In this document: positions 2,744 through 25,667 of the stretch, piece after piece | How positions within the stretch are numbered: position 1 is the stretch's first letter | How the letters are laid out: the number at the start of each line of letters is the position of its first letter | From: Robiginitomaculum sp. | Lineage (GTDB): Bacteria > Pseudomonadota > Alphaproteobacteria > Caulobacterales > Maricaulaceae | Reading direction: 5' to 3' | NCBI GenBank assembly: GCA_965224735.1 | Contig: OZ245059.1 | Span: 2,361-34,360 of the forward strand | DNA length: 32,000 nt | Program-made: the position numbers and the translations under genes | Notes under the pieces: generated by a model | Databases searched by the model: none | Told to the model about the DNA's origin: nothing | The model's input: the letters and a program-made list of their open reading frames with translations, nothing else

Positions 2744-3415
2744 TTATAGTGGCGCTGCAACCAACATAGCCCAGTAAGTTTGGTATGTGGTTTTGGGTTC
2801 ATAAACCAGGGCAATGCCAAATTCTGTAACATCAGCACGCAGTAAATTTTCGTTATGACCAGAGCTTTTTTGCCAAGCCATAAAAACTTCACCCCAACTT
2901 TTTTGACCTGTCGCTACATTTTCGGCCGCTATAGAAAATTCAGAATAACCCTGCCTTTGTAGCCGTTCGCCATGACCGGAACCATCACTACCCGTATGGG
3001 AAATTATGCCGTGCTTTGCCAAATCAGTAGCGTGAGTTTTTGACGCTGCGCTAAGTGCTGTATTTAAAACAACAGGCGAGCGACCATGCCGCGCGCGATA
3101 TGCGTTCAAATCAGCCAAGGCAATGTTTAAATTAAGCGGCGCGGGCGGCACGGAAGGAAATTGTGGGTTAGCACCAAAACCATTATTAAGGCTACAGAAC
3201 ATAATGGGTTTAGAAATATCAGCTTGCTCAACAACCGTGCCTCGGCATTTTCCGTTATCTGCCTTGCACAGCGCCGTACACGCTTCAAAAGAGCTTACTT
3301 CTATTTGTTTATAGGTTCCATCATCAGGAAAGGTACTCACACTGCTGTCACTGTTTTTCGCATAGACCCTCATGTCAAGAAAAAACATGAAAACCAAAAC
3401 AATGAACAGGCGCAC
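2744..3415 (-). CDS. Secreted CAP/SCP (PR-1-like) domain protein with N-terminal PAN/Apple-like Cys module
   Basis: Signal peptide, then CTALCKADNGKCRG...FCSLN. The CAP-type region follows: YRARHGRSPVVLNTALSAASKTHATDLAKHGIISHTGSDGS...ENVATG...WQKSSGHNENLL. Confidence 0.7.
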   Translation of the reverse strand: MRLFIVLVFMFFLDMRVYAKNSDSSVSTFPDDGTYKQIEVSSFEACTALCKADNGKCRGTVVEQADISKPIMFCSLNNGFGANPQFPSVPPAPLNLNIALADLNAYRARHGRSPVVLNTALSAASKTHATDLAKHGIISHTGSDGSGHGERLQRQGYSEFSIAAENVATGQKSWGEVFMAWQKSSGHNENLLRADVTEFGIALVYEPKTTYQTYWAMLVAAPL

Positions 3416-3680
3416 CTAGAAACTCCATAAGAATGTAGCCTCCCGTTCTTAATACTTTTCGTTAAATATAGATTAAAGTTCTCACTTTTCATAATTCTAT
3501 ACCAAAGCAGGTAGAAACGGCCAAGTCGCAAAAATTAGATGCGAACGAGCCTTAGAAGTGAACGGGCGGCGACGGCAGACTGTACACATAGTTACCTCTC
3601 CACAATACTCGCCAAAGGCATGGCCAGAGAACCAATAGTGCCAAAACCAATAGTAAAAGTCTAATCATCAAAACAATCCT

Positions 3681-4553
3681 TTATAGTATCCGTTTAATCG
3701 ACGTAATTACTCCTGTGGTTTGTGCAATACGCGCCGCAGCGTCTCTAAGCGGCTCTATCGCGACGCACATATGGTGTGCATTGGCGTGGAGCAACATTTC
3801 TCTATCGCCCATAATCCCCACATGCCCCGTCCAAAAAATTAGATCGCCGCGCACAAGACCTGTCAATTTTTCCGTGATTTCAACGGATGTACCAAGGGTT
3901 GTTTCTTGCATACCCGCATCGCGCGGCGCATCCAGACCGCATGCCCGTAGCGCAGTTTGCACTAAGCCCGAACAGTCAACTCCGTCAGGCGATACACCTC
4001 CCCATATATAAGGGAGGCCAAAATGTAACTCAGCCGCTTCAACAAAATCTGTTGGCTCTTGTCCAAGTTCTACAACATGGTTTTTATGCACATAGCCTAC
4101 ATCAAGCATTCTAATATAATCCCCCTCCTCGTCCTCCGCCAATAATTTTGCGTTCATTGGCAAAGAGGTGCGAATAGCGGATTTAAAATTTGCTTTCAAA
4201 AATGCGGGTGCACGCAAATTGCTGATGCGGTGAGTGGGTTCATAGCGGCTTGGCATGAGCGCCATTTTAGGCACATACCCCACATAGCCTTTTCTGTCCG
4301 CCTGCACTTCTTGACCCCATAGCCACGAACCGTGCAAATCATAAACATCAAATTCACTGCCGATAAGCAGCTGCGTTTCCATCATTGATGCATTCGCAGG
4401 TTTATTGTGTAGCGGCACGACGGGCATACGCACTTGGTAGCGCACGGCAGGAACATAGGTTTTCGCATCTACTTTGCCTTCAAGATACGCGGCAGCCACA
4501 TTTTCATTATAGGCATTTACTCTTGGATCAAGTTTGTTGTCTAATTTGCTCAT
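3681..4553 (-). CDS. NlpC/P60 (C40) family peptidase with N-terminal SH3-like region
   Basis: YIWGGVSPDGVDCSGLVQTALRACG (catalytic Cys) followed by GDLIFWTGHVGIMG...LLHANAHH (His). Confidence 0.85.
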   Translation of the reverse strand: MSKLDNKLDPRVNAYNENVAAAYLEGKVDAKTYVPAVRYQVRMPVVPLHNKPANASMMETQLLIGSEFDVYDLHGSWLWGQEVQADRKGYVGYVPKMALMPSRYEPTHRISNLRAPAFLKANFKSAIRTSLPMNAKLLAEDEEGDYIRMLDVGYVHKNHVVELGQEPTDFVEAAELHFGLPYIWGGVSPDGVDCSGLVQTALRACGLDAPRDAGMQETTLGTSVEITEKLTGLVRGDLIFWTGHVGIMGDREMLLHANAHHMCVAIEPLRDAAARIAQTTGVITSIKRIL

Positions 4554-6870: not shown

Positions 6871-7653
6871 ATGGTAGAGCTTGCACTACCCAAAAATTCC
6901 AAAATCGGCAAAGGAAAGAACTGGCCCGCGCTAGAAGGGGCTAAACGCATGAAGACGTTCAAAGTTTATCGTTATAGTCCTGATGATGACAACAATCCCA
7001 CTTGGGATACATATGCCGTTGATTTGGACGATTGTGGTCCGATGGTTTTAGATGCCATGATTAAAATAAAAAATGAAATTGATCCAACGCTTGCTTTCAG
7101 GCGTTCTTGCCGTGAGGGTGTTTGCGGGTCATGTGCGATGAATATTGGCGGGCGTAACACACTCGCCTGCACCAAGGGGATTGATGAGTTTAAAGGCAAT
7201 ACAATTACCATATCACCTTTGCCGCATATGCCTGTTGTGCGTGATCTTGTCCCTGATCTTTCAAATTTTTACGCGCAATACGCGTCTATAGAACCGTGGC
7301 TACAAACCATAACGCCAACGCCGCAAAAGGAATGGAGGCAAAGTGAAAAAGACCGCGATAAACTCGATGGCCTTTATGAATGCATTTTGTGCGCGTCTTG
7401 CTCTACAGCGTGCCCGAGTTATTGGTGGAATGGGGATCGGTATCTTGGCCCTGCGGTTTTGTTACAGGCTTACCGCTGGCTTATTGATAGCCGTGATGAA
7501 GCGACGGGCGAGCGTCTTGACGAGCTTGAAGACCCATTCCGGCTCTATCGTTGCCATACCATTATGAACTGCACCAATGTTTGTCCCAAAGGTTTAAACC
7601 CCGCCAAAGCAATTGCAGAGATCAAAAAAATGATGGTGGCCAGAACTTTTTAA
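6871..7653 (+). CDS. sdhB: Succinate dehydrogenase iron-sulfur subunit
   Basis: Three Fe-S cluster motifs: [27 protein letters not shown] and [12 protein letters not shown]. Start set at the ATG at 6871 (MVELALPKN), with GGAGAG at 6861-6866. Confidence 0.95.
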
Positions 7654-8813: not shown

Positions 8814-9716
8814 TAGTCCGACAGTGTGCTGGTGTTGTGTATAGTGATCTGTCAACCAAGGAGGTTTTATGGGACAAGTATTACACGAAAGCGCCAAGAC
8901 GACGTACATTACGAGAGCAGGGCTACAGCGATCGCAAGCTTCAACCCAAGCATTAGCCTTGCAATACGGGTTGAATGTGAAAACGATTGCGAAATGGCGC
9001 AAACGCGATTTCACGCATGATGTCGCGATGGGGCCAAAGAAACGATCTTCGAGAATGTTGAGCTGTAAGTGTTGAGCATTGAAGAGGAAGCTATGTGTGT
9101 GGCGTTTCGCCAGCATACATTACTGCCTCTTGATGATTGTCTGTATGCTTTGCAAGAGACGCTTCCTCATCCCTCCAGATCCGCTCTACACCGCTGTTAT
9201 CAGCGCCACGGTATAAGCCGTCTCCCCAACCCGAAAAATGACAAACCTGCAAAGAAGGTGTTCAAGACATATCCAATAGGGTATTTTCATGTTGATATTG
9301 CCAAAGTGCGCACAGAGGAAGGGAAACTCTACATGTTTGTTGGCATAGAGCGGACATCGAAATATGCATATGTTGAATTGCACGCGCGGCAAACGAAAAT
9401 GGTTGCTGCAGCATTTTTACGTAAGCTAATCACAACCGTGCCTTATAAAATCCACACCCTTCTTACTGATAACGGGATACAGTTCACCAATCGCAAACAA
9501 GATAAATATGCTGGCATACATATCTTTGATCATGTGTGTCACGAACATGACATCCAGCACCGCCTGACGAAAACCCAGCACCCTTGGACGAATGGACAGG
9601 TGGAACGCATGAACCGTACCCTCAAAGGCCTCACGCCTTACGAATATATTTGCAAAATATCTACAAAGGAGCCACAACGGTTTAACGTAAACCCATACCA
9701 GCACACTGTGGGACTA
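8814..9716 (+). mobile_element. Degenerate IS481-family insertion sequence
   Basis: Terminal inverted repeats TAGTCCGACAGTGTGCTGG (8814-8832) and CCAGCACACTGTGGGACTA (9699-9716), 18/19 complementary, enclose the transposase reading frames. Confidence 0.75.
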
Positions 9717-9746
9717 GGGTCAGGACTCATTAAAGCCAATATATAA
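8869..9746 (+). pseudogene. IS481-family DDE transposase, split by a frameshift with a probable internal deletion
   Basis: The HTH part (8869-9075, ...LALQYGLNVKTIAKWRKR) and the integrase-core part (9069-9746, ...LLTDNGIQFTN...HPWTNGQVERMNRTLK) are in different frames. ERMNRTLK joins directly to GLTPYEYICK, where family members normally carry ~30 more residues. Confidence 0.75.
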
Positions 9747-12452: not shown

Positions 12453-12528
12453 TGGTGCCGCATGGGTGACTTGAACACCCGACCCCCACATTACGAATGT
12501 GATGCTCTACCAGCTGAGCTAATGCGGC
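12453..12528 (-). tRNA. tRNA-Thr (anticodon CGU)
   Basis: Reverse complement GCCGCATTAGCTCAGCTGGTAGAGCATCACATTCGTAATGTGGGGGTCGGGTGTTCAAGTCACCCATGCGGCACCA folds as a 76-nt cloverleaf: 7-bp acceptor stem, anticodon loop TTCGTAA, T-loop GGTGTTCAAGTCACC and an encoded CCA. Confidence 0.9.
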
Positions 12529-18274: not shown

Positions 18275-21200
18275 ATGTATCTGAGGAAATCATTTTTAGC
18301 AGGGCTTGTTATAAATTCTTTCTCTGTTGCTTCGACCGCATTTTCAGCTACACCGCCAATAATACAAATTTCAGGGCAAAGAACAACCACCTATGAAAAT
18401 ACTTATGAAACGATAGCACCGTCATCAACAATAACTATGGAAGATAATTCAGGGCATTCCCAGCCACGCACATGGCATTATGAGTTTGTTGGTGATTTTC
18501 AAATAGTTTCTGTGAACGGGCCAAGAGACGATGTGTTTAATAACACCAAAGTTGAGAGATTTGATGATGGGAAGGTTGAGGTTATAACCAATCCACTTGG
18601 CCATCAAAACCGGTTTAAGTATGATAACACCCGAAATTTAATTTCACATACAGACGCCAACGGCGTCATAGATACATTTTCATATGATGGAAAGCTTCTG
18701 GTTGCTTATACCTATGCCGCAGGTTCCGCTCTTTCAGGCACAACAAGGTTGGCATATAACGCTGATGGCAAAATAACTCAGATTAATTTACCCCAGGATC
18801 AAGTTATTAGAGACACTCTTGATGATGAGGGGAATTACACCGATAGAGCCTATACAATCATTGCTCAGATATTCCAAAAAACCAGCTCACAAGGTTTAAA
18901 CAGGCTTTTCAAAAGGAAGGTGGGAGATGGTGGTCGAAACTTACCGCGTGAATTAACCCCATCACACGCAGCGAGTTCTCAAGAAGTAGATAGTCAGGGA
19001 AGATTAATTAAAAGTTATGATTTTTTGGGCGGCATTACAGAATACCGCTATAATGAGTTCGGAAATTTATCAGAAATGAAGCCGGCAGGAGGGGCGGTCA
19101 CACGATTTGAGTATAATGGATTTAATGAGATAGTTCGCAAAAAAAGTACCGATCGGGGTGTAACAACATTTGAGTATGACCAAGCGGGAAACAAAACCAA
19201 GGAAGTTCGTGCAGGGGGTTTCATCATAAAGAGAAAGTATGATGCTTTAAACCGATTGACGAGAAAAGTGTTCAAGCAAAACGGAGTGGATAAAAAAGTT
19301 ACCCGATATGTCTATGATAAGTGTAAAAATGGGATTGGCCGTGTTTGCAAAATTTCGGATTTCAGTGGGGTCACTAAGTTTCGTTATAATCTATTAGGGC
19401 ATTATAAGGCGGTGTCTGTAAAATATGCTGGTGAGGCTAATTTTAACACGGTCCGGTATTTTTATGGCGATGCTGGGCGTCTTGATAAGGTGCGTTATCC
19501 AACAGGGCTAATTGTTAGATACAGGTATTCAGATGCTGGATTTGTTAAAAAAATTACGGGCAGGTACGATACTGGTGAGGATAGGCAAAGGTTTGTTATA
19601 GCCAAAAACATTGAATTTGATCCTTTGTCAGGACAATTAACAAAATTTGTTTATGGCAACGCAATCAAGACAAGGGTTAAGCTTAATAAGGAAGCTGATA
19701 TATCAAAATTGATTGTTCGTAAGGACGGGGTAGTTATGGATAGATCAACTTACAACTATGATAAAAACGGCAATATAACCCACATTAATCGCCTTGACCC
19801 TGAACAAAGCCAAAACTTTTCTTATGATGCTCTTGGCAGATTAGTGGGTGAACAGCGCGGTATAAACAGCCAACAATCAACGTCTGTGTCCTATAGTTAT
19901 GATGCGAGGGGAAATCGTATTCGCAAAACTGATCTGAAAAAAACCAAAACCTATACTTACTCACCAAAAACAAACAGATTAACCCAAATCAACAAACAGG
20001 CTTTGCTCTATGACGCAAGGGGTAATTTGCTTGAGGACCGAGGTGGTAAGCGTGCTTTTTCATACGATGTGACGGGCCGTATGACGGGGTATTATAAGCG
20101 CGGAAAGCTAAAGGCCCGTTATAGCTATAATGCTTTGGGTCAACGCGTTTCAAAAACCATTCACCGCCCTGCAAAGAAAAATGACACCTATAAAAGTCTT
20201 CATTTTTCATACACCCCACGCGGAAAGCTTTTATCTGAATTTGGCCAAAACAGCCGTAATGCACGAACATTTACCAGGGAATATGTCTGGCTTGGCAACA
20301 AGCCTTTAGCGCAAATTGAAAGAACCATTAATAAGAAAGGCAAAACCAAAAAAACCAACATATATTATCTGCATTCAGACCATCTCAATACCCCTCGCTC
20401 TGCTAGCAATCAAAATGGAGAAATTGTTTGGCAATGGAATAGTGATGCTTTTGGCGTAGGAAAAGCCAACCGTGATGTCAATAATAACGGTAAGAAAGTT
20501 GCCATACGTCTACGTTTTCCTGGTCAATATTATGACGTAGAAAGCGGCCTGTCATACAATCACCACCGGGATTATGATCCAAAGATCGGCCGCTATATTC
20601 AACCTGATCCCATTGGGCTGGGCGGCGATGTAAATCCTTATGCCTATGTGGGTAGTAACCCTTTGAGTTACAGTGACCCTAATGGACTAAAGACATGCAC
20701 AGGCAGTAGAATTCAACGCTCAGACAGTTACAACTGCGGCGGTATGAGTAACGTTGAGTGTTTTGGCAATTGCAGCGGTTTTGGTGGACTAGCAAGAACA
20801 ACGAGGGGTTTTTGTGACGAGGGTGGCTGTACCGTAGAGGGCACGAGAAGTACGAATACTCCTGGGCATACATATTTAACATCAAATGTCGTATGCCGCA
20901 ATGCAGGCCTGGTATCCAATGCACAGCAAAAAAACCTTATGGCATGGTTTACCGTACCAAAGTTTTTTCCTTATATTGTCGACGTGCGAACTGGCACAGC
21001 AGAGACAGAGTACTTTGTATCCCATCCTGATACTGGGGTGCCAGGGGGTTTTGTAACCTCAGAATTAACACCTGATGGACTGTCGGGCACAAATGAAACT
21101 GTTCTAGGCAAGCATATATTCCAAGGGACGGTAACCCGTACATTGACAACAGTGAATGGGCAGCTTGTAATTGCTACATTCGGGACTGGAACATCAGATT

Positions 21201-21304
21201 CTGAAACGATGGATGCCTTGAACACTTGGTTAGGGCCTGGTATATTTAATGCATTAGACAAACACGCCGCCGACCGTCTAAGACGAACTTTTTCAGGATG
21301 TTAA
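18275..21304 (+). CDS. RHS/YD-repeat polymorphic toxin with Sec-type signal peptide and unassigned Cys-rich C-terminal domain
   Basis: YD repeats run throughout (FKYDNTRNLISHTDANG, FSYDALGRLV, YSYDARGNRI, LLYDARGNLL, FSYDVTGRMT, YSYNALGQRV). RHS core: YYLHSDHLNTPRSASNQNGEIVWQWNSDAFG...RFPGQYYDVESGLSYNHHRDYDPKIGRYIQPDPIGLGG. PxxxxDPxGL motif PLSYSDPNGL has its DPNGL at nt 20675-20689. The N-terminus MYLRKSFLAGLVINSFSVASTAFSA is signal-peptide-like. Confidence 0.9.
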   Translation: MYLRKSFLAGLVINSFSVASTAFSATPPIIQISGQRTTTYENTYETIAPSSTITMEDNSGHSQPRTWHYEFVGDFQIVSVNGPRDDVFNNTKVERFDDGKVEVITNPLGHQNRFKYDNTRNLISHTDANGVIDTFSYDGKLLVAYTYAAGSALSGTTRLAYNADGKITQINLPQDQVIRDTLDDEGNYTDRAYTIIAQIFQKTSSQGLNRLFKRKVGDGGRNLPRELTPSHAASSQEVDSQGRLIKSYDFLGGITEYRYNEFGNLSEMKPAGGAVTRFEYNGFNEIVRKKSTDRGVTTFEYDQAGNKTKEVRAGGFIIKRKYDALNRLTRKVFKQNGVDKKVTRYVYDKCKNGIGRVCKISDFSGVTKFRYNLLGHYKAVSVKYAGEANFNTVRYFYGDAGRLDKVRYPTGLIVRYRYSDAGFVKKITGRYDTGEDRQRFVIAKNIEFDPLSGQLTKFVYGNAIKTRVKLNKEADISKLIVRKDGVVMDRSTYNYDKNGNITHINRLDPEQSQNFSYDALGRLVGEQRGINSQQSTSVSYSYDARGNRIRKTDLKKTKTYTYSPKTNRLTQINKQALLYDARGNLLEDRGGKRAFSYDVTGRMTGYYKRGKLKARYSYNALGQRVSKTIHRPAKKNDTYKSLHFSYTPRGKLLSEFGQNSRNARTFTREYVWLGNKPLAQIERTINKKGKTKKTNIYYLHSDHLNTPRSASNQNGEIVWQWNSDAFGVGKANRDVNNNGKKVAIRLRFPGQYYDVESGLSYNHHRDYDPKIGRYIQPDPIGLGGDVNPYAYVGSNPLSYSDPNGLKTCTGSRIQRSDSYNCGGMSNVECFGNCSGFGGLARTTRGFCDEGGCTVEGTRSTNTPGHTYLTSNVVCRNAGLVSNAQQKNLMAWFTVPKFFPYIVDVRTGTAETEYFVSHPDTGVPGGFVTSELTPDGLSGTNETVLGKHIFQGTVTRTLTTVNGQLVIATFGTGTSDSETMDALNTWLGPGIFNALDKHAADRLRRTFSGC
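20074..20816 (+). repeat. 743-bp direct repeat, copy A (inside main rhs)
   Basis: Line-by-line comparison with 22384-23126 (offset 2310) shows no mismatch. The first differences are at 20817-20818 versus 23127-23128. Confidence 0.9.
20690..21301 (+). other. C-terminal (post-DPNGL) putative toxin domain of the main RHS, 204 aa, no recognised family
   Basis: It lies after the autoproteolysis-type motif. It has 8 Cys, 6 of them in the first ~47 aa, and the final residue is Cys. Two further variant copies lie downstream. Confidence 0.6.
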
Positions 21305-21305
21305 T

Positions 21306-21782
21306 ATGATGAAAACTAAAATAATTTCTATACAGTATTTGATATTTATTTTACCTGTTATGCTTTTGGCTGGTTGTGGTTATGGCACGGCTCTTAAGTA
21401 TAAACTCGAAGCGCCTGTCAACTATAGGTTAAAAATAACTGCCGATACTTCGCAACAAGCGGAACTTGATCTTAGACAGGCATTTATGCAGGAAAACTTA
21501 CAACTTGTTCGATATCGCCCCTACGATGATATAGATAGAAGTTATTATATATTTCACAGCAGTAGCAATATACATGTCAAATTACTTAATAGTCGGGGCC
21601 ATAAAAGTGCCATTGTTGCAATATATCCCGCCCGGCTCGCCTCTGTTTCATCCAAACTAAGAGCGCAATTGGAACAACGCGAAGAGGCACTCCTGCGTAT
21701 AGAGAAACAGCTAAAACAAACCGATAGTTTCTCCAAATATATACCCTCAGAGTGGGAAAGGGAATACAATATTTATAAGTGA
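21306..21782 (+). CDS. Putative immunity lipoprotein I1 (cognate to main CT)
   Basis: The ATG lies 1 nt after the toxin stop (TGT TAA T ATG), with AGGA 8 nt upstream. Lipobox LLAGC. It is a member of a 5-copy paralog family in this locus. Confidence 0.7.
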   Translation: MMKTKIISIQYLIFILPVMLLAGCGYGTALKYKLEAPVNYRLKITADTSQQAELDLRQAFMQENLQLVRYRPYDDIDRSYYIFHSSSNIHVKLLNSRGHKSAIVAIYPARLASVSSKLRAQLEQREEALLRIEKQLKQTDSFSKYIPSEWEREYNIYK

Positions 21783-21797
21783 AAATTGGTGAGGGCC
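21779..21797 (+). repeat. Cassette junction motif J1
   Basis: GTGAAAATTGGTgAGGGCC, spanning the immunity stop codon and the start of the next cassette. Confidence 0.85.
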
Positions 21798-21864
21798 TGG
21801 CATATTTAATGCATTAGACAAACACGCCGCAGACCGTCTAAGACGAGTTTTCTCAGGATGTTAA
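21793..21864 (+). pseudogene. Toxin-tail stub R1 (last 23 codons plus stop of an rhs CT)
   Basis: GPGIFNALDKHAADRLRRVFSGC* is homologous to 21233-21304. An in-frame TGA precedes it, and there is no start codon. Confidence 0.85.
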
Positions 21865-21865
21865 T

Positions 21866-22363
21866 ATGATAAAAACAATTGTCCGCCTAAAATATTTGGT
21901 CTTTATGTTACCGTTCGCGCTTATGGCTGGATGCGGTTATGATACAGCACTTAAGTACAAAACCAAAGGATCTACCAGCTATAGGTTAAAAATAACTGCC
22001 GAGACCCCGCAACAAGCGGAACTTGATCTTAGACAGGCATTTCTGCAGGAAAACTTACAACTTGTTCGCCATCACCTCTACAATGATATAGATAGAAGTT
22101 ATGCTATCTTTCACAGCAGTAGCTATATATATGTCAAATTACGTAATAGTGAAGGTTTTAGAAGAGCCATTGTTGCAATATATCCCGCCCGGCTCGCCTC
22201 TGTTTCATCCAAACGAAGAGCGCAATTGGAACAACGCGAAGAGGCACTTCTGCGTATAGAGAAACAGCTGAAACAAACCGATAGTTTCTCCAAATATATA
22301 CCCTCAGAATGGGAAAGAGACTACATGCACACCCTCAGAACGGGAAAGCCGCCGCTACAATAA
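21866..22363 (+). CDS. Putative immunity lipoprotein I2 (no full-length toxin partner)
   Basis: Lipobox LMAGC. Paralog of I1. The C-terminus is altered by a 31-bp imperfect duplication (…WERDYMHTLRTGKPPLQ*). Confidence 0.65.
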   Translation: MIKTIVRLKYLVFMLPFALMAGCGYDTALKYKTKGSTSYRLKITAETPQQAELDLRQAFLQENLQLVRHHLYNDIDRSYAIFHSSSYIYVKLRNSEGFRRAIVAIYPARLASVSSKRRAQLEQREEALLRIEKQLKQTDSFSKYIPSEWERDYMHTLRTGKPPLQ

Positions 22364-22369
22364 GTATAA

Positions 22370-22388
22370 GTGAAAATTGGTTAGGGCC
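22370..22388 (+). repeat. Cassette junction motif J2
   Basis: GTGAAAATTGGTTAGGGCC, joined to rhs sequence at GGGCC|GTATGACGGGG. Confidence 0.85.
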
Positions 22389-23126
22389 GTATGACGGGGT
22401 ATTATAAGCGCGGAAAGCTAAAGGCCCGTTATAGCTATAATGCTTTGGGTCAACGCGTTTCAAAAACCATTCACCGCCCTGCAAAGAAAAATGACACCTA
22501 TAAAAGTCTTCATTTTTCATACACCCCACGCGGAAAGCTTTTATCTGAATTTGGCCAAAACAGCCGTAATGCACGAACATTTACCAGGGAATATGTCTGG
22601 CTTGGCAACAAGCCTTTAGCGCAAATTGAAAGAACCATTAATAAGAAAGGCAAAACCAAAAAAACCAACATATATTATCTGCATTCAGACCATCTCAATA
22701 CCCCTCGCTCTGCTAGCAATCAAAATGGAGAAATTGTTTGGCAATGGAATAGTGATGCTTTTGGCGTAGGAAAAGCCAACCGTGATGTCAATAATAACGG
22801 TAAGAAAGTTGCCATACGTCTACGTTTTCCTGGTCAATATTATGACGTAGAAAGCGGCCTGTCATACAATCACCACCGGGATTATGATCCAAAGATCGGC
22901 CGCTATATTCAACCTGATCCCATTGGGCTGGGCGGCGATGTAAATCCTTATGCCTATGTGGGTAGTAACCCTTTGAGTTACAGTGACCCTAATGGACTAA
23001 AGACATGCACAGGCAGTAGAATTCAACGCTCAGACAGTTACAACTGCGGCGGTATGAGTAACGTTGAGTGTTTTGGCAATTGCAGCGGTTTTGGTGGACT
23101 AGCAAGAACAACGAGGGGTTTTTGTG
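22384..23126 (+). repeat. 743-bp direct repeat, copy B (5' part of orphan 1)
   Basis: Identical to 20074-20816. Confidence 0.9.
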
Positions 23127-23629
23127 GTGAGGGTGGCTGTACCGTAGAGGGCACGAGACAACGTACGCCTCCTTCTGCTCCTGGACATATATATTCAACA
23201 TCAAATGTCGTATGCCGCAATGCAGGCCTGGTATCCAATGCACAGCAAAAAAACCTTATGGCATGGTTTACCGTACCAAAGTTTTTTCCTTATATTGTGG
23301 ACGTGCGAACTGGCACAGCTGGTGAAACAAGATATTTTGTAACGCACCCTGATACAGGCGTCCCAGGTGGTTATGTAACTTCAGAACTTTTTTCTGGCGG
23401 GCTGACAGGAAGAAATACAACTGTTGATAATTTGCATTTTTTTGCTGGCACTATCACACGTACACTGACAACAGTGAATGGGCAGCTTGTAATTTCTACG
23501 CTCGGTGTTGGAACATCAGATTTTGTGACGATAGATGCCATAAATAGTTTATTAGGCCCAGGTGTCTTTAATGCACTAGATCGGCATGCTGCCGACCGTC
23601 TAAGAAGGGCTTTCCCCGGATGCCAATAA
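22391..23629 (+). CDS. Orphan rhs C-terminal cassette 1 (last YD repeats, RHS core and a variant CT)
   Basis: 412-aa ORF that starts at an internal Met of the rhs frame (MTGYYKRGKLKARYSYNALGQRV...). It includes DPNGL (22985-22999) and a CT that diverges from the main CT mainly in its last ~100 aa. There is no N-terminal signal or shell. Confidence 0.85.
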   Translation: MTGYYKRGKLKARYSYNALGQRVSKTIHRPAKKNDTYKSLHFSYTPRGKLLSEFGQNSRNARTFTREYVWLGNKPLAQIERTINKKGKTKKTNIYYLHSDHLNTPRSASNQNGEIVWQWNSDAFGVGKANRDVNNNGKKVAIRLRFPGQYYDVESGLSYNHHRDYDPKIGRYIQPDPIGLGGDVNPYAYVGSNPLSYSDPNGLKTCTGSRIQRSDSYNCGGMSNVECFGNCSGFGGLARTTRGFCGEGGCTVEGTRQRTPPSAPGHIYSTSNVVCRNAGLVSNAQQKNLMAWFTVPKFFPYIVDVRTGTAGETRYFVTHPDTGVPGGYVTSELFSGGLTGRNTTVDNLHFFAGTITRTLTTVNGQLVISTLGVGTSDFVTIDAINSLLGPGVFNALDRHAADRLRRAFPGCQ

Positions 23630-24090
23630 TAAATAAAATGCTTGCTCTACGGAACTTTGCCTTCATGCTAACCTTTGTGTGTATTTCTGGATGCGGGTAT
23701 GATGTGGTCTTACAGTACAAAGCGAAAGCATCTGTAGGGTATAGATTGACAATCACCTCAGATACACCTCAACAGGCATCATCCTTTGTTAAACAAACAT
23801 TTTTGTCGGAAGACTTGGAACCCGTCCATCATATTGAATTTGATACAGTCGAAAGGTCTTATATCTATCACAATAGTAGTATGATAATGATCACATTAAA
23901 TCTCGATTTTAAAACAGCAAATATTGCAATATATCCTGCCCGGCTTAACTCTGTTTCATCCAAGCGAAGAGCACAATTGAAACAACGTGAAGAAGCAATA
24001 TTACGTATAAAGCAAGTGCTGGAGAAGTCCGATAGTTTCACCAAATATATACCCTCAGAGTGGGAAAGAGAATACAATATTTATAAGTGA
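23620..24090 (+). CDS. Putative immunity lipoprotein I3 (cognate to orphan 1; most divergent paralog)
   Basis: Lipobox CISGC. Conserved family blocks IYPARLNSVSSKRRAQLKQREEAILRI and DSFTKYIPSEWEREY. An alternative start at 23638 (MLALRNF...) would avoid overlapping the toxin stop. Confidence 0.7.
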   Translation: MPIINKMLALRNFAFMLTFVCISGCGYDVVLQYKAKASVGYRLTITSDTPQQASSFVKQTFLSEDLEPVHHIEFDTVERSYIYHNSSMIMITLNLDFKTANIAIYPARLNSVSSKRRAQLKQREEAILRIKQVLEKSDSFTKYIPSEWEREYNIYK

Positions 24091-24105
24091 AAATTGGTTA
24101 GGGCC
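24087..24105 (+). repeat. Cassette junction motif J3
   Basis: GTGAAAATTGGTTAGGGCC, joined to rhs sequence at GGCCTGGTAT|CCAATGC. Confidence 0.85.
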
Positions 24106-24503
24106 TGGTATCCAATGCACAGCAAAAAAACCTTATGGCATGGTTTACCGTACCAAAGTTTTTTCCTTATATTGTCGACGTGCGAACTGGCAGACAAGGT
24201 TTTACAGAGTACTTTGTATCCCATCCTGATACTGGGGTGCCAGGGGGGTTTGTAACCTCAGAATTAACGCTTGATGGACTGTCGGGCATAAATAAAACTG
24301 TTCCAGGCCGGCATATATTCGCAGGGGAGGTAACCCGTACACTGACAACAGTGAATGGGCAGCTTGTAATTGCTACATTCGGGACTGGAACATCAGATTC
24401 TGAAACAATGGATGTCTTGAACACTTGGTTAGGGCCTGGTATATTTAATGCATTAGACAAACACGCCGCCGACCGCCTAAAACGAGTTTTTTCAGGATGT
24501 TAA
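24102..24503 (+). pseudogene. Orphan rhs CT fragment 2 (last ~130 codons only; ORF from the ATG at 24135)
   Basis: Homologous to 20906-21304 of the main gene: (GLVSNAQQKNL)MAWFTVPKFFPYIVDVRTG...FSGC*. It has no RHS core or DPxGL, and a TAG lies just upstream in frame. Confidence 0.8.
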
Positions 24504-24504
24504 T

Positions 24505-24978
24505 ATGATAAAAAACTATATAACTCAATCGCGGTATTGTACCCTTATTGTGGCCTTCTTTCTGGTAGGATGCGGTTATGATACAATACTTAGGTACAAA
24601 AACGAAGTGCCTGTCAACTATAGGTTAAAAATAACTGCCGATACCCCGCAACAAGCGGAATTTGATCTTAGGCAGGCATTTCTGCAGGAAAACTTACAAC
24701 TCGTTCGCAATCACCTCTACAATGATATAGATAGAAGTTATTCTATCTTTCACAGCAGTAGCCATATATATGTTCAATTACGTAATAGTGAAGGTTTTAG
24801 AAGGCTTCTTGTTGGGGTATATCCTGCCCGGCTCACCTCTGTTTCATCCAAACTAAGAGCGCAATTGAAACAACGCGAAGAGGCAGTCCTGCGTATAGAA
24901 GAAAAACTAAAACAAACCGATAGTTTCACCAAATATATACCCTCAGAGTGGGAAAGAGAATACAATAAGTATAAGTGA
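24505..24978 (+). CDS. Putative immunity lipoprotein I4 (I1-type)
   Basis: Same TGT TAA T ATG coupling as I1. Lipobox FLVGC. Family blocks are conserved. Confidence 0.7.
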   Translation: MIKNYITQSRYCTLIVAFFLVGCGYDTILRYKNEVPVNYRLKITADTPQQAEFDLRQAFLQENLQLVRNHLYNDIDRSYSIFHSSSHIYVQLRNSEGFRRLLVGVYPARLTSVSSKLRAQLKQREEAVLRIEEKLKQTDSFTKYIPSEWEREYNKYK

Positions 24979-24993
24979 AAATTGGTTAGGGCC
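24975..24993 (+). repeat. Cassette junction motif J4
   Basis: GTGAAAATTGGTTAGGGCC, followed by TGGTATATTTAATGC (toxin tail). Confidence 0.85.
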
Positions 24994-25060
24994 TGGTATA
25001 TTTAATGCATTAGACAAACACGCTGCTGACCGTCTAAGACGAGTTTTCTCAGGATGTTAA
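24989..25060 (+). pseudogene. Toxin-tail stub R2
   Basis: GPGIFNALDKHAADRLRRVFSGC*, 72 nt, homologous to 21233-21304. Confidence 0.85.
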
Positions 25061-25061
25061 T

Positions 25062-25559
25062 ATGATAAAAACAATTGTCCGCCTAAAATATTTGGTCTTT
25101 ATTTTACCTGTTATGCTTTTGACTGGATGCGGTTATGATACAGCACTTAAGTACAAAACCAAAGGATCTACCAGCTATAGGTTAAAAATAACTGCCGATA
25201 CCCCGCAACAAGCGGAATTTGATCTTAGGCAGGCATTTCTGCAGGAAAACTTACAACTCGTTCGCCATCACCTCTACGATGATATAGATAGAAGTTATGC
25301 TATCTTTCACAGCAGTAGCTATATATATGTTCAATTACTTAATAGTGAAGGTTTTAGAAGTGCCATTGTTGCAATATACCCTGCCCGGCTCGCCTCTGTT
25401 TCATCCAAACTAAGAGCGCAATTGGAACAACGCGAAGAGGCACTCCTGCGTATAGAGAAACAGCTAAAACAAACCGATAGTTTCTCCAAATATATACCCT
25501 CAGAGTGGGAAAGAGACTACATGCACACCCTCAGAACGGGAAAGCCGCCGCTACAATAA
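25062..25559 (+). CDS. Putative immunity lipoprotein I5 (I2-type, mosaic)
   Basis: Lipobox LLTGC. It has the same derived C-terminus as I2. The signal-peptide segment ILPVMLL matches I1 rather than I2. Confidence 0.65.
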   Translation: MIKTIVRLKYLVFILPVMLLTGCGYDTALKYKTKGSTSYRLKITADTPQQAEFDLRQAFLQENLQLVRHHLYDDIDRSYAIFHSSSYIYVQLLNSEGFRSAIVAIYPARLASVSSKLRAQLEQREEALLRIEKQLKQTDSFSKYIPSEWERDYMHTLRTGKPPLQ

Positions 25560-25565
25560 GTATAA

Positions 25566-25584
25566 GTGAAAATTGGTTAGGGCC
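25566..25584 (+). repeat. Cassette junction motif J5
   Basis: GTGAAAATTGGTTAGGGCC, followed by TGGTATATTTGATGC (toxin tail). Confidence 0.85.
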
Positions 25585-25667
25585 TGGTATATTTGATGCA
25601 TTAGACAAACACGCCGCAGACCGTCTAAGACGAGTTTTCTCAGGATGTTAATATGATGAAAAATTAG
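25580..25667 (+). pseudogene. Toxin-tail stub R3 plus truncated I1-type immunity start (array end)
   Basis: GPGIFDALDKHAADRLRRVFSGC* is followed by ATG ATG AAA AAT TAG. I1 begins ATGATGAAAACT, and homology is lost at ~25663. Confidence 0.8.

Follow-up and report, generated by a model that had tools for sequence, protein, structure and literature searches.

Rhs loci with orphan tip/immunity cassettes are reportedly found in Salmonella, E. coli and Dickeya, in work by Poole from 2011 and by Koskiniemi from 2013/2014. RHS polymorphic toxins that carry a signal peptide (the type II secretion system or 'T2SS' class) are a recognised class of their own, and the survey of Zhang et al. 2012 (PMC3482391) contains only one lipoprotein immunity family, Imm65. 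A START-like helix-grip tip has been noted among the cystatin-type polymorphic toxins (PMC12419801; mentioned in PMC13525633), and the immunity proteins of the lipid-directed toxins described there are all transmembrane proteins or lipoproteins (PMC12419801). Here we analysed a 32-kb stretch of DNA from Robiginitomaculum sp. (contig OZ245059.1; this whole stretch is called the window), in which an RHS toxin gene is followed by an array of toxin fragments and five lipoprotein genes, I1 to I5.

Both the architecture and the logic of the locus are those of a classic RHS polymorphic toxin with orphan cassettes, of the signal-peptide ('T2SS') class, and they are in general already well known. What is new are the toxin domain and the immunity family; lipoprotein immunity and a helix-grip tip are unusual, with precedent. 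We consider it likely that the whole is a Sec-exported RHS polymorphic-toxin array with a lipoprotein immunity family and an envelope-acting tip. The case is built on gene structure, paralogy, lipoboxes, the linkage of toxin and lipoprotein genes, fold predictions and purifying selection. The role of the five open reading frames (ORFs) as putative periplasmic lipoprotein immunity proteins is well supported by their context.

Five paralogous predicted lipoproteins

The five ORFs are intact, lie on the + strand (as do all features of the array described below) and encode proteins of 156-165 aa that align from end to end with 52-93% pairwise identity. They are I1 (21306-21782, 158 aa, lipobox LLAGC with Cys24), I2 (21866-22363, 165 aa, LMAGC), I3 (23620-24090, 156 aa when counted from 23620, CISGC), I4 (24505-24978, 157 aa, FLVGC) and I5 (25062-25559, 165 aa, LLTGC). 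The original prediction had placed five paralogs at these starts, each with one of these lipoboxes followed by GY[DG]; the coordinates, the motifs and the alignment over the whole length bear this out. The closest pair is I2/I5 (93%), and the outlier is I3 (52-54%). The start of I3 is ambiguous (23620 or 23638), and the start in the public annotation, which yields 141 aa, leaves no n-region.

When a profile of the five paralogs was searched against 5.8 billion proteins, the database copies were retrieved at E-values of 1e-72 to 1e-88, and the paralogy is therefore not due to chance. The ratio of nonsynonymous to synonymous substitution rates (dN/dS) lies between 0.32 and 0.82 across all ten paralog pairs, from which we conclude that purifying selection maintains all five as proteins. 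When calculated by region, dN/dS did not clearly point to positive selection; a single pair exceeded 1 in the N-terminal half, with small counts.

Lipoproteins were recognised by a positive n-region, a hydrophobic core and a lipobox of the form [LVI][ASTVI][GAS]C whose Cys lies at position 15-35. All five proteins (5/5) have K or R within the first 8 residues, and their maximum 12-residue hydropathy is 2.1-2.7. The strict PROSITE PS51257-type rule is passed by I1, I2, I4 and I5 (4/5). I3 fails it solely through a Cys at position -4, and its I-S-G-C is still a canonical lipobox. The lipoprotein rule is also passed by 9 of the 13 family members from outside the array that were checked. The mature lipoproteins contain 0 Cys.

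The sequence blocks that had been proposed as shared are present, and CGYD, YRL.IT, IYPARL, LRIK and DSF..YIP persist in distant homologs. An amphipathic helix had been predicted for the IYPARL..LRI block. The helix itself is seen in the model, where the block forms a strand and a confident helix (residues 116-137, pLDDT >90), but its amphipathicity did not hold up, as the hydrophobic moment (muH) is 0.32 and 26% of shuffles reach this value. The complete AlphaFold model of I1 (pLDDT 85.6) has a signal helix followed by beta-alpha-beta-beta-beta-alpha-beta-alpha; weak similarities of this model to BamC-N and KA1 were not significant and were dropped. The lipoproteins gave no NCBIfam, PADLOC, meaningful PHROG or PDB-sequence (HMM) match. 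In Pfam, the only match at E <=1 was to DUF6527, at a chance-level 0.041, and neither Imm65 nor the other catalogued Imm families were matched.

At the C-termini of I2 and I5 (..DYMHTLRTGKPPLQ; 22330-22363 and 25526-25559), the 3' end of the gene appears to have been partially duplicated with a change of frame. The vestigial original ending ..AAGTATAAGTGA is still found after both stop codons.

The RHS toxin and its tip

The main toxin gene (18275-21304) encodes a protein of 1009 aa with matches to Pfam RHS_repeat (1e-36) and RHS and to NCBIfam Rhs_assc_core (TIGR03696; 5.9e-24). A YD/RHS shell and an RHS core that ends with DPNGL at about residue 801-805 precede the tip, which is the layout of an RHS polymorphic toxin. 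The N-terminus is a Sec-type signal-peptide-like sequence, MYLRKSFLAGLVINSFSVASTAFSA, and a homolog from another sample (locus L005), 77% identical, has retained such a signal-like N-terminus. Residues 1-642 are identical to a protein deposited from a metagenome-assembled genome (MAG) of Robiginitomaculum sp., a marine alphaproteobacterium of the order Maricaulales. Two further tips are found in the array. The orphan RHS fragment at 22384-23629 (ORF 22391-23629, 412 aa) comprises the last RHS repeats, the core and the tip CT2; it has no signal peptide and diverges from the main gene only in the helix-grip part. The orphan tip fragment CT3 at 24102-24503 (ORF 24135-24503, 122 aa) matches positions 20906-21304 of the main gene and has neither the conserved NVVC cysteine nor an export signal.

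Short related RHS genes with signal-peptide-like N-termini were also seen in Photobacterium and Pseudomonas (L016, 936-5209; L017, 837-5272), each of them after a DUF6531/RHS-repeat gene. The upstream gene in L016 itself starts with a signal peptide, and both cases may be split or fragmented RHS genes.

The tip of the main toxin, CT1 (residues 806-1009; 20690-21301), begins with a Cys-rich linker of ~45 aa that is unstructured in the AlphaFold model. It is followed by a 150-aa helix-grip domain ending in ...FSGC, with a pLDDT of ~90 for residues 55-204. The predicted model was assigned to the helix-grip fold on the basis of 12 Foldseek matches in the PDB at E <= 0.001. Nearly all of the top 50 matches are START, Bet v 1, PYR/PYL, polyketide-cyclase or other SRPBCC proteins, and the best is 3q63 (E 2.3e-5, probability 1.0, TM-score 0.58 by target). 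No match to the last 204 residues was found in Pfam or NCBIfam at E <=1, START/SRPBCC profiles included, or among PDB sequences, PADLOC or PHROG; the tip is thus a member of the START superfamily by predicted fold only. START/SRPBCC helix-grip proteins bind lipids and other hydrophobic ligands.

The tip contains 8 Cys, five of them in the linker, two in a C..GC motif that opens the domain, and one in NVVC. The NVVC Cys is conserved together with the invariant C-terminal Cys of the tip, and this pattern suggests that disulfides are formed in the periplasm. The invariant polar residues are few (R100, N135, R150 and N178). All full-length carriers of the tip, namely the main RHS and the proteins of loci L005, L009 and L001-4, have Sec signal peptides. 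Judging from these signals, the Cys and the helix-grip model, the tip probably acts outside the cytoplasm.

Sec export also leads to a different explanation of the lipoproteins, in which they would only shield the periplasm of the producer while the RHS protein folds there and encloses its tip, and the target of the toxin would lie in the cytoplasm of the recipient. Since both the RHS and the stand-alone versions have Sec signal peptides, there must be a moment at which the toxin is exposed in unfolded form in the periplasm of the producer. We still regard protection at the export stage alone as unlikely. The conserved Cys of the tip (NVVC and C-terminal) suit an oxidising compartment and would be awkward for a protein that has to cross another inner membrane. 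A helix-grip domain is a binder of hydrophobic ligands and not a known cytoplasmic toxin fold in such systems. A less clean argument is that the immunity protein of a related HNH nuclease-tipped RHS with a signal-like N-terminus has no signal peptide, this being a single, fragmented locus.

Junctions, relics and growth of the array

Three of the lipoprotein genes had been described as directly following a toxin stop codon. This is the case for I1 and I4, which start 1 nt past it (TGTTAATATG), and for I3, which overlaps the end of its toxin. The same TGTTAATATG is found ahead of I2 and I5, since a relic of 79 nt, left from the 3' end of the toxin gene, stands before each of them. These relics (21786-21864 and 24982-25060), which the original prediction had not recognised, encode WLGPGIFNALDKHAADRLRRVFSGC-stop; both emerged from repeat analysis and alignment. 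A third relic found by repeat analysis (25573-25651) is followed by the truncated 15-nt start of an immunity gene (ATGATGAAAAATTAG) and forms the 3' edge of the array (25573-25667).

One and the same junction stands upstream of every copy, with the toxin's last codons reading ..TCAGGATGTTAAT-ATG (short form ..GGATGTTAAT-ATG). That of I3 is a variant, in which the toxin ends with GGATGCCAATAA and the canonical ATG is lost. AGGA, a Shine-Dalgarno-like motif that is also contained in the first relic, is located seven bases ahead of the ATG. About 60 nt ahead of each lipoprotein start, within the last codons of the toxin, there is a TG-extended, -10-like TATATT, which is a consensus match only.

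A promoter-like site was noticed at 21218-21246, with repeats at ~24417-24445, 24975-25002 and 25566-25593; the CT2/I3 junction is without it. The relics keep the -10 element (TATATT after TG), and the -35-like hexamer is provided by the end of the preceding immunity gene. Such a candidate promoter might explain why the relic always travels with the immunity gene.

Every lipoprotein stop codon is followed by AAATTGGTTAGGGCC (AAATTGGTGAGGGCC after I1), which is the start of a relic. Twice, this start is joined to deeper toxin sequence at a microhomology, GGGCC (5 nt) in the case of the orphan RHS fragment and GGCCTGGTAT (10 nt) in the case of the CT3 fragment. The splice sites are at 22379-22389 and 24094-24111 of the window, and their partners in the main gene at 20069-20074 and 20906-20915. 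Given these microhomologies, we attribute the junctions, which are readable to the base, to illegitimate recombination. The orphan RHS fragment is 100% identical to the main gene over 20074-20816 (~740 nt).

The array may have grown by duplication of a unit consisting of the toxin's last 79 nt and the immunity gene, a unit that would carry its own ribosome-binding site and perhaps a promoter. Short microhomologies would have been sites of illegitimate recombination, by which the array grew further. Through homologous recombination in the 740-nt identical stretch, CT1, I1 and I2 could be replaced by the orphan tip together with I3. A contig in which the RHS gene bears CT2 directly (L014) was considered as evidence of such a tip replacement and rejected as undecidable. 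The repeat has probably collapsed there, since the short-read sample in question also yields I1-I2 on a separate contig with similar coverage. With a 79-nt relic for each immunity gene, microhomologies of 5-10 nt and the 740-nt stretch, the array is an unusually legible record of its growth.

Toxin and lipoprotein are linked in other loci

The lipoprotein family is very rare. There are 9 clusters among 5.8 billion proteins, four of which come from this genome, and an exhaustive profile search of 1.84 billion representative proteins gave 11 matches. A genome scan yielded two loci, both in Robiginitomaculum MAGs; a metagenome scan for the family added no new locus, and plasmid searches for it were empty. 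The tip domain, with 7 clusters, is equally rare.

According to the original prediction, homologs that are generally unlinked to toxin genes would speak against an immunity role. The opposite was seen in every outside locus with readable context (L001-4, L005, L006/7, L008, L009 and L010). In all of them, the homolog starts 1 nt after a tip-domain gene, or a relic of its last codons, or overlaps it, and the sequence of the toxin-lipoprotein junction is conserved in every locus. In L005, a signal-peptide RHS of 1016 aa with the same tip is followed by a homolog 1 nt later. The toxin of L009 (311 aa) has its tip joined through a linker to a Sec signal peptide; a lipoprotein homolog again follows 1 nt later, and then a second paralog. 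A similar stand-alone toxin gene with a Sec signal precedes the homolog in L001-L004. L006/7 and L008 contain orphan tip genes with a homolog after each, and in L010 only the toxin's last codons (..AFPGC-stop) remain upstream of the homolog. The toxin gene of L001 (7121-7999) has an in-frame stop at 7274-7276, found in four independent assemblies (L001-L004), and the lipoprotein gene is intact; these loci may hold a disarmed toxin with retained immunity.

The pair therefore follows the toxin domain and not the delivery domain, as it is found with RHS, with a bare Sec signal peptide and with orphan fragments. From the shared linkage and the matching rarity, we conclude that tip and lipoprotein form one mobile two-gene module. 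Its independence of the delivery domain is the defining behaviour of a toxin-immunity pair.

The surroundings of some of these loci were also inspected. In L005 (119-8109), the RHS-lipoprotein pair has a Tn3-family transposase on one side and a resolvase on the other, in the manner of transposon cargo. In L006 (2761-4612, a Robiginitomaculum MAG), a stand-alone DUF6973 gene and two small ORFs are placed immediately upstream of the orphan tip-lipoprotein pair. The DUF6973 domain is also found inside an RHS protein (P0117), and the L006 site resembles a multi-cassette toxin island. L010, likewise from a Robiginitomaculum MAG, contains a family member with a toxin-type tail (2793-3266, ..PFLPGC-stop), directly followed by an unrelated 178-aa ORF with multiple transmembrane segments (3270-3806). 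The same contig encodes a 332-aa Sec-signal protein (771-1769) that ends in ..PPGC-stop and has a signal peptide similar to the one of P0013, a stand-alone toxin. Different cassettes in Robiginitomaculum seem to have a 'PGC-stop' joint in common; it could be a recombination joint, a constraint of the ribosome-binding site or a functional C-terminal Cys.

The most divergent lipoprotein had been said to follow the most divergent tip, and the numbers agree: I3 (52-54% identity) follows CT2, which shares 77% of its residues with CT1 over the 122 aa in common, compared with 89% for CT3. The distances between tips correlate with those between their partners (Mantel r 0.77, p 0.0004, 8 pairs), and the lipoprotein partner diverges faster than the tip. 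Export anchors are kept throughout the family, as lipoboxes in most members and as an uncleaved N-terminal membrane helix in the two most distant ones.

That the two genes are tightly coupled in translation and always occur together would also fit an obligate helper, that is, a lipoprotein that aids folding of the tip, its release, its crossing of or docking at the outer membrane, or its activation. BcpO in the contact-dependent inhibition (CDI) loci of Burkholderia is a comparable accessory case. No separate candidate for an immunity gene was seen in these loci, and a lipoprotein of unknown role, MafA, is encoded beside the Sec-dependent MafB toxins (PMC4287609). We find an accessory role quite improbable, however. 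Helpers are usually conserved single genes, and MafA sits upstream of its toxin, whereas the lipoprotein studied here diverges faster than the tip, has multiplied in tandem and travels with orphan tips, which is the signature of immunity. It also persists beside a truncated toxin or one with an in-frame stop, and a helper role would leave the system without any immunity gene.

It is very improbable that this is not a toxin system at all, but a two-part envelope module for lipid handling or sensing that RHS and secreted scaffolds happen to carry. In favour of such a module, most START-like proteins carry or sense lipids, 'toxin' labels given earlier to START proteins of bacteria have been withdrawn (PMC13525633), and no enzymatic motif was found in the tip. 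Against it, the domain is placed exactly at the toxin position of RHS proteins, after the DPxGL core, and the array holds orphan tips, relics and divergent partners in tandem. The occurrence is also very rare and patchy; one copy has a Tn3-type context, and another lies beside a further toxin-type domain. A housekeeping role would agree with none of these points.

Proposed function

For the Sec-exported toxin array with lipoprotein immunity that we favour, the following picture emerges, in which lipidation, location, binding, neutralisation, the specificity of pairing and the target of the toxin are what we infer. Each lipoprotein would be made with a type II signal peptide, exported by Sec, lipidated on the lipobox Cys and cleaved there, and its small alpha/beta domain would then be tethered at the periplasmic face of a membrane. 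In E. coli, a Gly at position +2 directs a lipoprotein to the outer membrane. Under this rule, Gly +2 would place the lipoproteins in the outer membrane. The tethered protein would bind and block the toxin tip, which follows the putative DPxGL self-cleavage site of the RHS core and is predicted to consist of the Cys-rich linker and a disulfide-stabilised helix-grip domain. The tip's most likely mode of attack on the envelope would be to bind a lipid or another hydrophobic envelope molecule, or to act on it. I1 is the presumed cognate of CT1, I3 that of CT2 and I4 that of tips of the CT3 type, the array's own CT3 being truncated. I2, with its altered C-terminus, and I5 would be orphan immunity copies directed against related tips from kin strains.

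Several points weigh against this picture. There is no known route by which a Sec-exported RHS protein would get out of a Gram-negative cell and into a neighbour. Tightly linked genes are expected to co-vary through shared descent alone, and the independent loci are few and nearly all from one genus. The fold match of the tip is moderate (TM-score 0.4-0.58) and rests on a 9-sequence alignment, and no catalytic motif or ligand residue was recognised in the tip. A Foldseek search of the PDB with the lipoprotein model found no match below E 0.001 (best E 0.014) and does not inform on the mode of binding. Finally, the Cys is absent in the second paralog of L009, in P0020 and in P0023. Lipidation itself is therefore not essential, and membrane tethering, rather than the lipid, seems to be what matters.

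A bolder version of the proposal is possible but doubtful. The tip would be a non-enzymatic, disulfide-locked helix-grip killer that captures an essential envelope lipid, delivered by a Sec-dependent RHS independently of a T6SS (type VI secretion system), and the lipoprotein, working at the surface of the membrane, would cap or occupy its pocket. The captured lipid could be an undecaprenyl-linked precursor, a phospholipid or acyl chains belonging to lipoproteins in transit.

Genomic neighbourhood

The array is flanked by gpsA and a YCII-domain gene on one side and by a low-molecular-weight phosphatase gene on the other, with a response regulator gene also nearby, and the array is a few percent lower in G+C than these flanks. 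No T6SS-type genes and no PAAR or VgrG were found within the 32-kb window, to which this search was confined, and the locus was not classed as a T6SS effector-immunity locus. Rfam and tRNA scans gave no match inside the array. An ORF with an integrase core (rve; 9069-9746) and a tRNA-Thr (12453-12528) are located 6-9 kb upstream, with no established link to the array. Antisense ORFs within the lipoprotein genes were taken as by-products of the repeats. A truncated I5-like paralog of 83 aa (P0024) is encoded on the same 2.63-Mb contig outside the window; the genome thus has at least one further copy or locus.

Significance and comparison with known systems

If the proposal is true, a toxin domain and an immunity family that are both uncatalogued join the polymorphic-toxin repertoire, and the locus is a clear example of lipoproteins guarding an RHS toxin. 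It would also be among the very few hints that a START-like lipid-binding fold serves as an interbacterial weapon. As the same pair occurs on RHS and on a bare signal peptide, it could serve to study what the RHS shell contributes and by which way a Sec-exported RHS exits the cell. Should lipid capture prove to be the mechanism, this would be a new mode of interbacterial killing and an entry into how signal-peptide RHS toxins reach their targets.

Like the Rhs loci of enterobacteria, the locus has an RHS shell, a DPxGL core, a variable tip, an immunity gene directly downstream and extra immunity genes, and a stretch of the main gene recurs unchanged in the downstream orphan fragments, which permits tip replacement. 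In contrast to those loci, there is a Sec signal peptide here, and PAAR, VgrG and T6SS genes are absent nearby. The immunity proteins are predicted lipoproteins, not cytoplasmic proteins, and the tip is not a nuclease or a member of another known family. The 79-nt toxin relic that accompanies each immunity gene is a further difference.

With the signal-peptide class, including MafB of Neisseria (PMC3482391, PMC4287609), the locus shares the signal peptide as sole export signal, polymorphic tips and downstream cassettes, and in neither is the route across the outer membrane known. The immunity proteins of MafB are not lipoproteins, and the lipoprotein of that system, MafA, is encoded upstream and is conserved (PMC4287609). 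An extracytoplasmic toxin that is met by exported and often lipid- or transmembrane-anchored immunity is also found in periplasm-acting systems (T6SS amidase, lipase and pesticin-type effectors; colicin M/Cmi; Lipocone, PMC12419801). There is no sequence or significant structural similarity to the immunity proteins of these systems, and both the Sec-RHS delivery and the fold of the toxin differ. The tip itself has, by prediction, the helix-grip topology that characterises START, Bet v 1 and SRPBCC proteins (beta-alpha-alpha-beta6-alpha), in which the C-terminal helix is long. Compared with the START-like tip of the cystatin-type toxins, which is carried by a cystatin-like module, as far as its description goes, it is set apart by being disulfide-rich, by its invariant Gly-Cys end and by its placement on RHS or on a bare signal peptide.

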